Shown piece after piece: positions 5,881-11,342 of a stretch of 64,000 bases of DNA. The position numbers and the translations under genes were made by a program. Source of the stretch: Candidatus Kaiserbacteria bacterium (GTDB lineage: Bacteria; Patescibacteriota; Minisyncoccia; Phycocordibacterales; UBA2100); the NCBI GenBank assembly GCA_016217925.1, contig JACRFK010000004.1, positions 133,869-197,868 on the forward strand, read 5' to 3'. Numbering within the stretch: the stretch's first letter is position 1; each line of letters starts with the position of its first letter. Under the pieces are notes generated by a model that saw only the letters and a program-made list of their open reading frames with translations, made no database searches and was not told the DNA's origin.

Positions 5881-6807
5881 TCAATCCATCAGGGGCTTTT
5901 TCACGTCCACGTTGGTCGTCTGATACACCCAGTTTATCCAGTTGGAATAGAAGACCTGGCCGTTCGCCCCCCAATTTTTGAGCGGCGTTTTCCGGGGGTC
6001 ATCGCCCGGGAAGTAATTCTTCGGAAAGTCTATCGGCAGGCCTAGCGATTTGTCCCTGAGATATTCGCCTGCTATATCATCGCGATCATATTCAGGATGT
6101 CCTTGTATGTAGATTTCTCGCCCTTTTCGTCCGGAAATCAAGTGCAATCCTGCGTCTTTGCTCTTAATGAGAATCTCGAAGCCGCGGAGGCCCAACAGAT
6201 CTTCTTCCCTGATTCCCCGTTGTCGCGCGTGGGGTACTAATATCTCGTCGTCCATTCCTTCTACGAACGGCGAACCCGAAGCGTGGTTGACCTGATGCCT
6301 GAAGACGCCGAACTTTTTCCTCTTATATGCATGTGGGCGGATGCCGTGACGGTGATACAGCATGGCGTGGGCGGCCCAGCAGCAGTAGACGGTCGATGTC
6401 ACTTGCTCGCGTGCCCAGTCGAAAAGGTCGGTGAGTTCTTTCCAAAAGAAGATTTCCTCGAATACGTGGTGCTCGAGATTTCCTCCGGTGACTATGAGTC
6501 CATCGAGGCCGCTCTTTTTTACGTCACGTAGCGACTTATAGAATGCATCGAAGTGGTCCTGTTTGGACGCCGATTTATGTTCATCGAAACGAATGAACGT
6601 CGGTTTTATCTGAAGAGGTGTATTTGCAAGGGGACGTAAGAACTGCACCTCTGTCCGCTCGAGGGTGGCGCTAGGCATGAGATTCAAGATCCCGATTTCC
6701 AGCGGACGAATGTCTTGCTTCTCTGCGCGCTCGGTAGATATCTCGGCCACCTGCTCGCGCTTGAGGTATGCGAATGCCGGGAGTTTCTTGTTGATGATGA
6801 GTGCCAT
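5881..6807 (-). CDS. metA: homoserine O-acyltransferase (MetA/HTS family)
   Basis: LPAFAYLKREQV...IRPLEIGILNLMP...GLIVTGG aligns with the MetA N-terminus; start refined to MALIINKK. Confidence 0.8.
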   Translation of the reverse strand: MALIINKKLPAFAYLKREQVAEISTERAEKQDIRPLEIGILNLMPSATLERTEVQFLRPLANTPLQIKPTFIRFDEHKSASKQDHFDAFYKSLRDVKKSGLDGLIVTGGNLEHHVFEEIFFWKELTDLFDWAREQVTSTVYCCWAAHAMLYHRHGIRPHAYKRKKFGVFRHQVNHASGSPFVEGMDDEILVPHARQRGIREEDLLGLRGFEILIKSKDAGLHLISGRKGREIYIQGHPEYDRDDIAGEYLRDKSLGLPIDFPKNYFPGDDPRKTPLKNWGANGQVFYSNWINWVYQTTNVDVKKPLMD

Positions 6808-6939
6808 AGCGAATCCTAAAAATACCATCTACGCCGCCAGAAGCAAAAAAAGAAGAAAGTTTAAGGCAAGTTGTGTTTACAAATGAATAGCTATAGAGTT
6901 GGCTCAGTCCTAGGTGCCACATCGTGATTGGAGGCGTCG

Positions 6940-7431: not shown

Positions 7432-7512
7432 ATGGCGGCAGATTTGAAGGGGCTTAAGACGCAATTTCTCCCCGCCGGAGGCGGGTCCTCCTCCGGAGGA
7501 GAATACTTATGA
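7432..7512 (+). CDS. upstream ORF (26 aa) mimicking the Xer N-terminus; its TGA stop overlaps the xer ATG (ATGA)
   Basis: [26 protein letters not shown]; residues [10 protein letters not shown] match Xer residues 3-12 (9/10) with 8 of 10 codons synonymously different. Confidence 0.4.
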
Positions 7513-9686
7513 AAGACTTAAAGGGTTTGAAAACCGAGTTTCTGGAGTATATAGAAATTGAAAAAGGGCGGAGCGTGAAGACGGTCGAGAATTATGACCG
7601 CTATCTCATGCGGTTCCTCAATTTTGCAAAGGTGAAGTCCCCTGCCCAGATAACCGAGCAGATGGTGCGTGAATTCCGTATCACACTCAATCGTTCCGCA
7701 GGGGTTACAGGCACGATGAAGAAGAATACACAAAATTATCACCTCATCGCGCTGCGCGCGTTCCTCAAGTTCCTCCGCAAGCGTGATATCGAATCGCTCA
7801 ATCCCGAGCGTATCGAACTTGCCAAGGTCGGTGGACGCGATTTGGATCTCATTACCGCCGATGAGCTCAACAGGATCATGCGTGCGCCCACGGGTGACGA
7901 GCTAGGGGGTCTGCGCGACCGCGCGATCCTCGAACTTTTGTTTTCTACCGGTTTGCGCGTCTCGGAACTCTGCAATTTGAATCAGGATATTGACCTCTCT
8001 CGCGATGAGTTCTCGGTGCGCGGCAAAGGAGAAAAGGTGCGCGTGGTATTTCTCTCGGCGTCCGCGAAAAAAGCGGTGGCCGAATATTTGAAAAAGCGCG
8101 GTGATATGAGCAAGGCGTTGTTCGTCAGTTACGGCAAAGGCGGCACGAGCAAGGGAAAAGATTTACCGCGCATCACTCCGCGCTCCGTCGAGCGATTGGT
8201 AAAACAGTACGCGATAAAAGCGGGCATCACGCGCAAAGTGACGCCGCATGTCATTCGTCACTGTCTCCACGCGGAAACGCGAATAATGGGAAACCCTTCG
8301 CTCACAACGGCGAAGGAGTTGTTCGCATCCGAAAAGCAAAAGAAGGTCCTTGGATTTGATTGGAAAAACAATCGTCTCATGCGGGCCTCGATTAAGAGAC
8401 GTGAAACACATTCCACACAACGCCTGATTTCTTTATGGGCGGACGGCCGGGAAATTTGCTGCACCCCGTACCACAGCTTTTTCACCCCGAGCGTTAACGG
8501 TATTGTGCCGATACAAGCACAAGACCTGAAAGTTGGGGATTATGTAGCGGGAGTTCGCAGTGTTCAATGGTCCCAGGGAAGTAGACCCGAAAGCGAATCC
8601 ACGGACTTTTGGAGATTGCTTGGATATATTCTTGGTGATGGAACGCTTAGTGAGGCACGGCGAGGTATTATCATAAATGATAAAGAACGTCGCCACATTG
8701 ACCTATACAACGAAATTGTTTTTCGTGTGACGGGCAGGTGCGGAACCGTCACTAAATTGTCAGGCGGCAATGGGTACGCGCTCAATATCTACAATGTTGG
8801 TTTTCTGAAAAAGGTACGAGCTCTTGGAATTACACAGCGTTCAAAAGAACGGCGTGTCCCCGCGGGCCTGTTTCAGGAGTCCGAGACCGCGATCCGAGCC
8901 TTTCTTGCAGGCTATTACGATGCCGAAGGAAATAACGGCAGGATTAAGATGTTCTCCGCAAGTAAGGAACTTCTGAAAGACATACAAATGTTGCTGCTCC
9001 GGTTGTCTATCGAGAGCATACTGCTCCGCCGAGAGCGGCGAGTGAAACTTCCCCAAGGTCGGGTCATTGACCACGTCATATACATACTGCATGTGACGTA
9101 TCCACCAAGCGAGAATCGCTTTGTGGAACTCATACCAACATTCAAACAACGCATACGACCGAAAAAAGAGTGGCAGCGACTCGATATTGCATTACCTACG
9201 CAACCACTGATTCGAGGACTCTACCCCCTTTTGCTTGCCAAGAGGGGTTTCATCCATTGGCTCGGTAACCGTTATGGCATACGGTACCTGAAACGTTATA
9301 CAAGAATATGTACAACACCGCTGCTGCTCTCTGTGTTTCTTAAGGCCTGCAAAGAAAAAAGAATTCGAAATCCATTTATCAAGCAACTCGAGGTTCTCAA
9401 CCGACTCGATTCGATTCGATGGCTCCGAGTGAAGAAGCTGGAGATGGTCGGCGGTGTATCGAAAGTTTACGATTTCACGATAGAACCAACGCACAATTTC
9501 ATCACAGATGGTTTTATCTCGCACAACTCATTCGCGACTGACCTACTCGAAAATGGTGCCGATCTGCGTAGCGTGCAAGCGCTCCTCGGCCACGCCAACA
9601 TCGCAACGACCCAAGTCTACACGCACGTGACCGACAAACACCTCCGCGAAGTCCATCAGGCATTTCACGGCAAACGCCGCAAATAA
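7509..9686 (+). CDS. XerC/XerD-family tyrosine recombinase containing an in-frame intein
   Basis: N-terminal SAM-like domain; ...TPHVIRH then a 422-aa insertion then [34 protein letters not shown] (R-H box and catalytic Tyr region). Confidence 0.85.
8262..9527 (+). mobile_element. intein with LAGLIDADG homing-endonuclease domain inside the xer gene
   Basis: starts with Cys right after HVIRH; ends with His-Asn before Ser+1 (SFAT); block B TPYH; LAGLIDADG motifs [11 protein letters not shown] and [11 protein letters not shown]; C-terminal blocks [12 protein letters not shown]...ISHN. Confidence 0.8.
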
Positions 9687-9689
9687 CCT

Positions 9690-10427
9690 ATGAACGAGAA
9701 AATCGAAAATAATGAGACGAACACTATTCGCGGACCCGAACCGCTGCACGAGCAGAATATTTCCGTCATCGGCATGGGGCGTTTGGGCACCAAGCTCGTA
9801 GAGCGCTTGCAGGAAATAACGCCCCAGAACACGCATATCCGGCCGGTCGGAAATCGCGAGGAGAATAAACTCGCCGCATCGGTCTCCGACCTCGTTATTC
9901 TCACGGTGCGGCACGAACAAGTATCGGACACACTATCGGATATCGGACTGAAGCTCAGTATAGACGCGCAAGTACTTTCGTTTGCGACGCATGTTCCCGT
10001 AACGCTCCTCGAGCGCATCGGTGGCAAACCCTCCGCACGTTTTCTGTGCGATCCGTGGTTCCAAATGGGCGCGTACGTGCTCGGCGAGGGCTTTTCCACG
10101 AAGGGAATCGAGTTTATCTTCGATAATTTGACGGCAGTGAAGCCGGTACGCCTGCGCTCTGACGAGGAGCTGGAACAATACACGCACGAAATCTGCCATC
10201 TCTATGCGACGCTCTTTCTCAAAGCGCTCGGCGAGTTTCCGAACGCTGACGCACACCTGCAATTCCTCGCCGGCAAAATGAACGTGCGAGTTGAAGATCT
10301 ATTGAGTATTAATACAGGAGAGACTCCGCAGCAGGCGATAGCGCTTTTTGCCACACCAGGTGGCGTGACCGAGGCGATGATGAAGAAGTTACGCGAGAAT
10401 CCGGACATCGCACCTTCGGAGCTCTAA
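9690..10427 (+). CDS. pyrroline-5-carboxylate reductase-like NAD(P)-binding protein
   Basis: Rossmann ISVIGMGRLG at the N-terminus; C-terminal TPGGVTEAMMKKL resembles the ProC SPGGTT motif. Confidence 0.45.
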   Translation: MNEKIENNETNTIRGPEPLHEQNISVIGMGRLGTKLVERLQEITPQNTHIRPVGNREENKLAASVSDLVILTVRHEQVSDTLSDIGLKLSIDAQVLSFATHVPVTLLERIGGKPSARFLCDPWFQMGAYVLGEGFSTKGIEFIFDNLTAVKPVRLRSDEELEQYTHEICHLYATLFLKALGEFPNADAHLQFLAGKMNVRVEDLLSINTGETPQQAIALFATPGGVTEAMMKKLRENPDIAPSEL

Positions 10428-10514: not shown

Positions 10515-11342
10515 TTGAAAATGTTCAAACGTCTAGTCGCGATGCTGCTCGCGGTTTCCCTGTGTATGCCCCATGTGGCGTTCGCAGACCCGCTTGGCGG
10601 TATGAGCGCTTCGTATAAGGCGCTCTTCAGCAAGTACATCACTCCCGACTTCGTCCGCGGTGTCTACATCGACAAGTCACTGTCGGTCGACAGTTGGTGC
10701 ATGCGCGACCAGTGGGTCAACCCACAAACCGGCAAGCGCTGTCGGGACGGGACCGAAAGGCCGCTCTACAAGTTCGTGATTCCGCAAATCGTCTACCAAT
10801 CACAAGGCGGCACGAACTCTACGGCGGCTGCGGTGCGGAATCGCCGCTCTGCGTCGCCTCTCGGCGCCGGTCAAGAAATCGGCGTCGAAGAGCTTGAGCC
10901 GAGCTACTATCCGGCCGAGTTCTACCTGCGCGGTCCGCCTCGTGAGAAGAACGCCTACGGAGTGTTTCCGTGGACGTCATTCATCGAGCGGGTCGTCGTG
11001 GAGGCGGGCTCGTTCGTCCCCAACAAGGCGCCGGCGCTCGTTGCATTCGATGTCGCGGGTCGTGCGTATGATTCCGACATCAAACGAGCGTTGCCAGCAC
11101 ATCACGAGTTCGGTGAGAGCGAAGTATGCTGGGTCATAGCCCAGCTTTCGAGCGCACAGCGCAACGGTGAGACCGGTGCACTCGTCGCTAATGGCCACGC
11201 GAACGTGTTCTACACCGCCTCCCATGCCGTACTTCTGATTTGGTGCGGCGCGAAGATCGGGTGGGGCATCGGAGCGTGGCAAAGCGGGAATAACCGGTGG
11301 GAAACCGGTGACCGGGTCTTCATTCCGAAACCGGCGACCTGA
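10515..11342 (+). CDS. secreted hypothetical protein with signal peptide
   Basis: 275 aa; N-terminal MKMFKRLVAMLLAVSLCMPHVAFA signal peptide; no domain recognised. Confidence 0.55.
   Translation: MKMFKRLVAMLLAVSLCMPHVAFADPLGGMSASYKALFSKYITPDFVRGVYIDKSLSVDSWCMRDQWVNPQTGKRCRDGTERPLYKFVIPQIVYQSQGGTNSTAAAVRNRRSASPLGAGQEIGVEELEPSYYPAEFYLRGPPREKNAYGVFPWTSFIERVVVEAGSFVPNKAPALVAFDVAGRAYDSDIKRALPAHHEFGESEVCWVIAQLSSAQRNGETGALVANGHANVFYTASHAVLLIWCGAKIGWGIGAWQSGNNRWETGDRVFIPKPAT

Follow-up and report, generated by a model that had tools for sequence, protein, structure and literature searches.

The window analysed here is a stretch of 64,000 nucleotides (64 kb) from a Candidatus Kaiserbacteria bacterium (GenBank assembly GCA_016217925.1, contig JACRFK010000004.1, positions 133,869 to 197,868 of the forward strand). 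It encodes a Xer-type tyrosine recombinase whose active site is interrupted by a long in-frame insertion. We consider it likely that this insertion is an active homing intein with a LAGLIDADG endonuclease, which resides in a chromosomal Xer gene and is sustained by horizontal transfer, including transfer between bacteria of the Candidate Phyla Radiation (CPR) and DPANN archaea. Both the splicing and the DNA cleavage that this implies are predicted from sequence. A first-pass annotation had already read the insert as an intein carrying a LAGLIDADG endonuclease, and this reading is now supported by profile matches, by the predicted fold and by uninterrupted alleles in relatives.

Position of the Insertion and Identity of the Host Protein

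The insertion comprises residues 252–673 of the precursor (nt 8262..9527; 422 aa, 1266 bp, in frame), coordinates that were re-checked base by base. It lies between the codons for His251 and Ser674, with TPHVIRH (aa 245–251) on one side and SFATDLL (aa 674–680) on the other, so that the 422-aa insert in a 725-aa open reading frame (ORF) described by the first-pass annotation is confirmed to the base by translation. The junction (…H247-V-I-R250-H251/S674…; here and below the slash marks the insertion point) is situated one residue past the catalytic Arg250 of the H-x-x-R box. The insert had been thought to split the HxxRH box. The active site is indeed divided, since in the precursor the whole intein parts R150, K173, H247 and R250 from H695 and the nucleophile Y704, but H247 and R250 are not separated from each other. 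The identical NCBI protein, from a 217-kb contig of a Candidatus Kaiserbacteria bacterium, is annotated as ‘tyrosine-type recombinase/integrase’.

When the intein is removed in silico, a protein of 303 aa results that matches Phage_integrase in one stretch (positions 3–172 of 172, 150 bits). The N-extein covers positions 3–135 of this profile, and positions 136–172 are restored by the in-silico splicing. The spliced extein also matches Phage_int_SAM_1 (56.8 bits) and spans positions 2–288 of 290 of the XerD model in one stretch. The alignment with Xer profiles that had been proposed as a check thus runs from end to end once the insert is taken out. The extein passes the cut-off of NF040815 XerA_Arch (238.9 vs 220) but stays below the equivalog cut-offs of TIGR02225 XerD (248.9 vs 329.6) and TIGR02224 XerC (247.3 vs 335.15), so that we class the protein as XerA-like or Xer-related. 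Among solved structures, Pyrococcus abyssi XerA (4a8e, E 1.6e-41) and the Thermoplasma protein (5hxy, E 1.8e-38) are its nearest relatives, ahead of Escherichia coli XerD. A search with the precursor gave 254 protein matches at E ≤ 1e-5, and the conservation figures in this text refer to the best 120 of these 254 homologues, which were aligned. All six Xer catalytic residues (R150, K173, H247, R250, H695 and Y704) are intact in the window and each is kept in at least 119 of the 120 homologues; for His695 and Tyr704 the count is 119, the remaining homologue having a gap.

The first-pass annotation had called this the only Xer-type tyrosine recombinase. Within the 64-kb window no other tyrosine recombinase and no other intein was found, and the Xer protein of this host is apparently single and XerA-like. 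A single-recombinase, XerA-like system may be what CPR bacteria use, and the ‘Cand’ subgroup (PMC8138268) can be compared with it.

Splicing Domain

The insertion is, on its sequence features, a complete canonical class-1 intein that bears an endonuclease (Table 1). PF14890 (Intein_splicing) matches the insert with 73 bits against a Pfam cut-off of 35.8, and TIGR01443 (intein_Cterm) with 25.5 bits against an NCBIfam cut-off of 15.6, the latter spanning intein residues 401–422. Translation bears out the claimed start at Cys and the end with His-Asn before Ser+1, and the block B motif TPYH and the two LAGLIDADG motifs with their acidic residues are present as claimed, at intein residues 68–71, 119–129 and 214–224. 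The residues required for splicing are conserved practically throughout the family. Cys1, Thr/Ser68, His71, Asp404 and Asn422 are each found in 120/120 homologues and His421 in 119/120; at position +1, 107 homologues have Ser and 13 have Cys. Given these intact catalytic residues and the purifying selection on intein and extein (see section “Probable Mobility of the Intein”), the element would be expected to splice autocatalytically.

An AlphaFold2 (AF2) model of the insert, for which 13 aligned homologues served as input, has a pLDDT of 90.6 and a pTM of 0.90 and shows beta-strands across intein residues 7–98. The top PDB matches of this model in Foldseek are all endonuclease-bearing inteins: 7qss (E 1.6e-26, TM-score 0.67), 1dq3 (E 4.4e-24), PI-TkoII and PI-SceI. 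Over these inteins the E-values range from 1.6e-26 to 1.6e-11 with TM-scores up to 0.67, at a structural-alignment identity of just 11–21%. By sequence, the nearest solved intein is PI-PfuI (E 3e-9). A comparison of the insert with Hint and LAGLIDADG profiles had been suggested as a check; Intein_splicing and LAGLIDADG_3 both score above their curated cut-offs, well past anything that chance would give, and the model folds like an endonuclease-bearing intein. Between the endonuclease and the C-terminal Hint lobe lies a helical region that has the lowest identity of all intein regions (mean 0.30) and of which a part aligns to PI-PfuI, up to residue 359. Presumably this is an accessory DNA-recognition region.

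Table 1. Positions in the window of the Xer gene, its intein and their functional residues.
Feature	Position (nt)	Strand	Remarks
Precursor ORF, Xer-type tyrosine recombinase + intein	7509..9686	+	725 aa plus stop, no internal stop
N-extein, aa 1–251	7509..8261	+	SAM-like N-terminal domain (aa 10–92) and most of the catalytic domain; Pfam
N-extein catalytic codons	R150 7956–7958; K173 8025–8027; H247 8247–8249; R250 8256–8258	+	Kept in 119–120/120 homologues
Intein, 422 aa	8262..9527	+	PF14890, TIGR01443, AF2 model, Foldseek
Hint N-lobe, intein aa 1–110	8262..8591	+	Block A Cys1 8262–8264; block B T68-P-Y-H71 8463–8474
LAGLIDADG homing-endonuclease domain, intein aa 111–300	8592..9161	+	PF14528; motif 1 8616–8648, motif 2 8901–8933
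Endonuclease acidic residues	Asp126 8637–8639; Glu222 8925–8927	+	Motif positions
Helical region, intein aa 301–384	9162..9413	+	Between endonuclease and C-terminal Hint lobe; AF2 helices 314–381
Hint C-lobe, intein aa 385–422	9414..9527	+	Block F VYDF, Asp404 9471–9473; block G His421-Asn422 9522–9527
C-extein, aa 674–725	9528..9683	+	Ser+1 9528–9530; His695 9591–9593; nucleophile Tyr704 9618–9620

Endonuclease Domain

PF14528 (LAGLIDADG_3) matches the insert with 45.6 bits (Pfam cut-off 22.5). Both motifs, LLGYILGD126G and FLAGYYDAE222G, close with an acidic residue and a Gly; 119/120 homologues keep Asp126, and 120/120 have Glu or Asp at position 222. The endonuclease part of the model resembles I-DmoI and I-Tsp061I (Foldseek E 1e-7 to 1e-6, target TM-score 0.59–0.70), has the pseudo-symmetric alpha-beta-beta-alpha-beta-beta-alpha fold and also matches the endonuclease cores of PI-PfuI and TliVMA. 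From the sporadic distribution of the element, the incongruence between intein and extein and a lower GC content at third codon positions (GC3; 0.50–0.53 in the intein vs 0.64–0.66 in the exteins, with 0.50 vs 0.64 for the window copy), we infer that the enzyme would cleave the empty allele site-specifically and so promote homing.

Empty Sites

Intein-free alleles of the same gene, which had been proposed as a means to define the homing site, occur in close relatives. The best 120 relatives of the extein are 85–93% identical to it, have about 303 aa and are all without intein; many belong to Kaiserbacteria. Each of the 120 reads TPH..RH/SFATDLL without interruption. The nearest intein-bearing relatives have an extein identity of only 79–87%. 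One intein-free relative, L083, has the gene order that is found upstream in the window (NYN…MgsA-HTS-Xer, where HTS is homoserine O-succinyltransferase) and a Xer gene without insert, which is uninterrupted at …CCGCACGTCATCCGCCAC/AGCTTCGCAACC…. The empty-site sequence in L083 or L001 is …ACGCCGCACGTCATCCGCCAC/AGCTTCGCAACCGACCTACTTGAG….

The upstream neighbours (genes for an NYN nuclease, FKBP, S15 and MgsA) are common to intein-free and intein-bearing loci, S15 and FKBP being found in relatives. Such a conserved housekeeping neighbourhood (NYN and MgsA; S15 and FKBP) argues for a chromosomal recombinase rather than the integrase of a mobile element. Empty orthologues and shared neighbourhood together indicate a housekeeping chromosomal gene with a precise insertion of 1266 bp, of which the target is unoccupied in close lineages.

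Distribution of the Intein Family

The best 120 homologues of the precursor all carry Phage_integrase, Intein_splicing and LAGLIDADG_3 and, except for three partial entries, have 700–795 aa. They come from Kaiser-, Nomura-, Brenner-, Lipton-, Wolfe-, Azam- and Yanofskybacteria, Kazan and others, and family members derive from independent NCBI, JGI, ENA and Logan assemblies. All 120 aligned homologues share exactly the same insertion point. Mean identity to the window is 0.60 for the exteins and 0.43 for the intein; within the intein it is 0.49 for the endonuclease domain and 0.38 for the Hint N-lobe. JGI pipelines label some homologues ‘site-specific recombinase XerD/intein/homing endonuclease’.

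With the intein alone as query, 29 clusters were obtained at E ≤ 1e-30 from 1.84 billion cluster representatives; the source names of divergent intein-bearing clusters held hardly any taxonomic information. The ten divergent members that were checked are without exception tyrosine recombinases split at Pfam position ~135 of 172, and down to about E 1e-34 every intein relative that was examined lies in a tyrosine recombinase split at this position. The next relatives outside the family (28–34% identity) are inteins in RadA (P0277), aRF1, sugar dehydratases and beta-CASP nucleases, mostly in archaeal-type hosts. In addition, 185,579 species-representative genomes, one per GTDB species, were scanned by intein alignment and a two-motif pattern. 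This yielded about 69 loci with a near-full-length intein, a number that is a lower bound because the scan used endonuclease motifs and would miss mini-inteins without endonuclease. All 61 loci that could be read across both junctions have the site …H-x-x-R-H/C…H-N/[S/C]-[F/Y]-A-[T/I]. The hosts are Parcubacteria/Paceibacteria, Saccharibacteria, Microgenomates, Peregrinibacteria and Kazan, and further DPANN archaea (records titled Nanoarchaeota, Pacearchaeota and Woesearchaeota) and two short non-Xer integrases. Archaeal host Xer proteins score best with the XerA_Arch model.

It is hardly credible that the insert is no intein and represents instead an accessory domain native to the Xer proteins of the CPR, a bacterial intein-like (BIL) domain or a chimera that arose in assembly. 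The source is a metagenome-assembled genome (MAG), and nothing further speaks for this reading. A native domain is rejected by the orthologues without it, which form the majority, and no homologue was found with a native, non-intein domain at this position, a finding that the first-pass annotation had named as one that would speak against an intein. BIL domains are Hint domains without +1 nucleophile or nested endonuclease and occur in variable, non-conserved hosts; the terminal His-Asn, the invariant +1 Ser/Cys, the nested endonuclease and the conserved site in an essential-type enzyme led us to reject this option. A chimera is rejected on the same architecture in more than 250 proteins from independent assemblies and in the 61 verified genome loci.

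Several members deviate from the common pattern. Some inteins (L056, 2261–3499; L066, 872–2140; proteins P0255, P0256, P0262 and P0265) sit in tyrosine recombinases that are shorter, are devoid of the SAM-like N-domain and differ in their C-extein (SFAINWIK…, SFAIHCIK…), with the insertion still at the H-x-x-R-H/S box. This could point to extein switching to non-Xer integrases. The protein P0351 (586 aa) is a Xer whose intein, inserted at the same site, has only about 290 aa and gives a weak single LAGLIDADG match; this intein may be a degenerating copy of the element. A number of intein-bearing MAG records have titles outside the CPR: L027, L030, L043, L045, L062 and L067 (Nevskiaceae, Pseudomonadales or Gammaproteobacteria), L034 (Chloroflexi) and L066 (Desulfobacterales). 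In the extein tree the ‘gammaproteobacterial’ records fall inside a Microgenomates-like clade of the CPR and L034 adjoins the DPANN clade. The bins or the taxonomy labels of these records are probably wrong.

Probable Mobility of the Intein

The histories of intein and host gene are decoupled. Between pairs of CPR loci (n = 1081) mean identity is 0.52 for exteins and 0.40 for inteins, with 20 pairs in which the intein is closer than the extein. Between CPR and DPANN loci (n = 282) the means are 0.315 for exteins and 0.409 for inteins, and here the intein is the more similar part in 281 pairs. In bootstrapped neighbour-joining (NJ) trees the DPANN exteins are monophyletic in 97% of replicates and the DPANN inteins in 0%. 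The extein tree joins L018 and L029 as sisters (100%), which the intein tree never does, and L018 and L021 have 54% extein identity and 75% intein identity. Rare occupancy, endonuclease motifs that are intact almost everywhere and decoupled intein and extein histories fit a homing cycle that is sustained by horizontal transfer.

Six contigs of DPANN archaea (L018, L019, L021, L028, L029 and L044) contain the same intein family at the same site of archaeal XerA genes. Their inteins split into two distinct groups, and one of these lies within the inteins of the CPR. The two groups suggest repeated cross-domain transfer. In L018 the neighbouring genes are an adjacent S9-L13 pair, followed by an ORF with weak L18e-type matches.

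For co-conversion of the flanking extein, four intein-bearing and four intein-free alleles were compared in synonymous codon identity, codons within ±12 of the junction being set against the remainder of the gene. The same-codon fraction is 0.51 near vs 0.40 far from the junction between two bearing alleles, and 0.43 near vs 0.47 far between bearing and free alleles. In the comparison of the window with L004, the closest intein relative, the proportion of differing nonsynonymous sites (pN) is 0.092 over the entire intein and falls to 0.053 within the endonuclease domain, at a synonymous proportion (pS) of about 0.69 (0.68 for the endonuclease domain), which is saturated. Since pS is saturated even for the closest pair (0.68–0.9), the analysis relies on pN and, for the ratio, on a rough upper bound. 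On these values the whole element is under strong purifying selection, strongest on the endonuclease.

Several points weigh against an active, horizontally sustained homing intein. Firstly, the cross-domain part depends on the binning and taxonomy of MAGs, in which several titles are implausible, and archaeal neighbours were checked for L018 only. Secondly, intein identities of 0.3–0.4 are near a possible floor set by the conserved motifs, and the trees are simple NJ trees on identity-derived distances. Thirdly, the co-conversion trend in the flanking extein codons has the expected direction but is small, and its pairs are few and non-independent. Fourthly, synonymous sites are saturated even in the closest intein pair, so that no recent homing event was caught. 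Lastly, the N-terminal splicing model TIGR01445 stays below its cut-off (18.9 vs 24.5), although PF14890 does cover the whole Hint domain.

The sub-threshold TIGR01445 match and the lack of a visible recent transfer could also be taken to mean that the insertion is decaying or inactive, with xer effectively a pseudogene or with a dead endonuclease in an intein that is only vertically inherited. Nothing specific in the sequence favours this. The frame of 725 codons is open, all splicing, endonuclease and extein catalytic residues are present and conserved family-wide, and pN/pS is far below 1 in every intein region, which makes an inactive insertion very unlikely. A pseudogene in particular was rejected on the open frame and the intact catalytic residues.

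The strong conservation of the endonuclease could have another cause. If the intein were domesticated, conditional splicing (by redox via Cys1, or by DNA or stress in the manner of RadA and RecA inteins) would gate Xer, or the endonuclease would have taken on a host function. The endonuclease motifs are intact in 119–120 of 120 homologues, mean identity is higher in this domain (0.49) than in the Hint N-lobe (0.38) and its pN of 0.053 stands against a saturated pS. The insertion adjoins catalytic Arg250, so splicing would be an obligatory activation step, and conditional splicing of recombinase inteins is documented (PMC4513877). However, the best 120 Xer orthologues are without the element, it has only about 69 carriers (a lower bound) among 185,579 genomes, its phylogeny is incongruent with that of the host gene and at least one shortened variant exists (P0351, ~290 aa). 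Absence from the nearest orthologues, rarity and incongruence are typical of a selfish element that is maintained through repeated homing and not of a trait that benefits the host, and domestication therefore seems unlikely. A post-translational switch across CPR and DPANN, by which redox state, DNA or stress would act on the apparently single XerA-like recombinase to gate dimer resolution or other Xer recombination, while the endonuclease would be kept for a host-relevant role in DNA binding or cleavage, is similarly a rather doubtful proposition. The view that the intein allele is a gene-flow link between two radiations of ultra-small symbionts, across the boundary between Bacteria and Archaea, is largely supported.

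Proposed Mechanism

As an active homing intein, the element would function as follows, each step being drawn from established intein and homing-endonuclease biology. Translation would give an inactive precursor of 725 aa in which Arg250 is kept 422 residues away from His695 and Tyr704. Class-1 splicing would start with an N-S acyl shift at Cys1, after which the thioester would be passed to Ser+1; cyclisation of Asn422, aided by His421 and Asp404, and an O-N shift would end the reaction. The products would be a Xer protein of 303 aa that reads …TPHVIRH-SFATDLL…, as in the native sequence, and the excised intein, of about 48 kDa. Once free, this intein would cut intein-less xer alleles around …CCGCACGTNATCCGCCAC/TCNTTCGCNACCGAY…, a conserved sequence that codes for the active site. 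Repair from the intein-bearing copy would then spread the element by homing, also between species and between CPR bacteria and DPANN archaea.

Neighbouring Genes in the Window

A gene for homoserine O-succinyltransferase (HTS/MetA, 347 bits) is encoded on the minus strand at 5881–6828, between mgsA and xer. HTS/MetA is found in the mgsA-xer gap of L083 as well, and not in that of L001, L002 or L084. The slot upstream of xer is thus locally variable, and the organism group usually has minimal biosynthesis. Directly downstream of xer two ORFs of 245 and 275 aa (9690–10427 and 10515–11342, both on the plus strand) have no Pfam match; the first begins 4 nt past the xer stop codon. Genes for Exo_endo_phos and a CCA enzyme are common downstream among the loci of relatives and were not identified in the window.

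Significance

The host family and the insertion site are what is new here. The build and the chemistry are of the ordinary PI-PfuI/TliVMA type, and the sequences stand in public databases, some of them with automatic annotation. A search of the accessible full-text literature, which covered the main text of intein surveys (PMC4760082 among them), two reviews and the tyrosine-recombinase classification, found no natural intein described in a Xer or other tyrosine recombinase, and the only combinations of inteins with tyrosine recombinases that it gave were engineered split-intein recombinases. The first-pass annotation had stated that no intein was known at this site. No paper describing one was found, but the insertion is not unique to this genome, as it occurs in more than 250 proteins across CPR and DPANN, some of them labelled by JGI.

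Tyrosine (Xer) recombinases would join the list of intein hosts and the H-x-x-R-H/S box that of insertion sites, which extends the known preference of inteins for conserved catalytic sites in enzymes of DNA metabolism. The apparent sharing across domains is the most interesting aspect. One intein allele occupies a single site in numerous CPR lineages as well as in DPANN, with a phylogeny decoupled from that of the host gene, and may therefore be used as a tracer of DNA exchange between both radiations, and the sharing would imply that these uncultivated, co-occurring radiations take up and recombine foreign DNA. The family also offers a new LAGLIDADG endonuclease with a defined candidate target and, as predicted, a natural intein-gated recombinase, both of kinds used in protein and genome engineering. 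For annotation, ‘tyrosine recombinases’ of 700–790 aa in this family should be read as Xer plus intein.

Comparison with Known Systems

The element resembles TliVMA (7qss), PI-PfuI (Pfu RIR1-1, 1dq3), PI-TkoII (2cw7) and PI-SceI (1vde), in which a Hint domain is likewise split by a double-motif LAGLIDADG endonuclease and an accessory region, and it shares their splice-junction residues (Cys1 … His-Asn/Ser or Cys +1). It differs in its host protein, a tyrosine recombinase where theirs are V-ATPase, ribonucleotide reductase (RNR) or polymerase, and in its carriers, which are CPR bacteria and DPANN archaea whereas those inteins occur in Thermococcales or yeast.

Inteins are biased toward proteins of replication, recombination and repair and toward conserved catalytic sites (PMC4513877; PMC4760082). 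Like the inteins of Pho RadA and Mtu RecA, that of Xer has a conserved catalytic site as its insertion point, in an enzyme of DNA recombination, and splicing would be needed for activity in all three. RadA and RecA, however, perform ATP-dependent strand exchange and have the intein in the P-loop ATPase domain, whereas Xer is a site-specific tyrosine recombinase with the intein in the H-x-x-R-H/S box.

The extein has the complete R-K-H-R-H-Y set of archaeal XerA (P. abyssi 4a8e, Thermoplasma acidophilum 5hxy) and of the simple ‘Cand’ tyrosine recombinases (PMC8138268). In the literature searched no report was found of inteins in archaeal XerA or ‘Cand’ recombinases. Lastly, the endonuclease belongs to the same LAGLIDADG family, and the carrier to the same host group, as the endonucleases of rRNA-gene insertions in CPR bacteria (PMC11270868). 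In the passages of that paper with the word ‘intein’, inteins are mentioned only in passing, with COX1 and cytochrome b named as host proteins. Together, the two kinds of element point to a CPR-wide reservoir of LAGLIDADG homing elements. Those of the rRNA genes are encoded in introns or insertion sequences and removed at the RNA level, whereas the Xer intein sits in a protein-coding gene and would be removed at the level of the protein.

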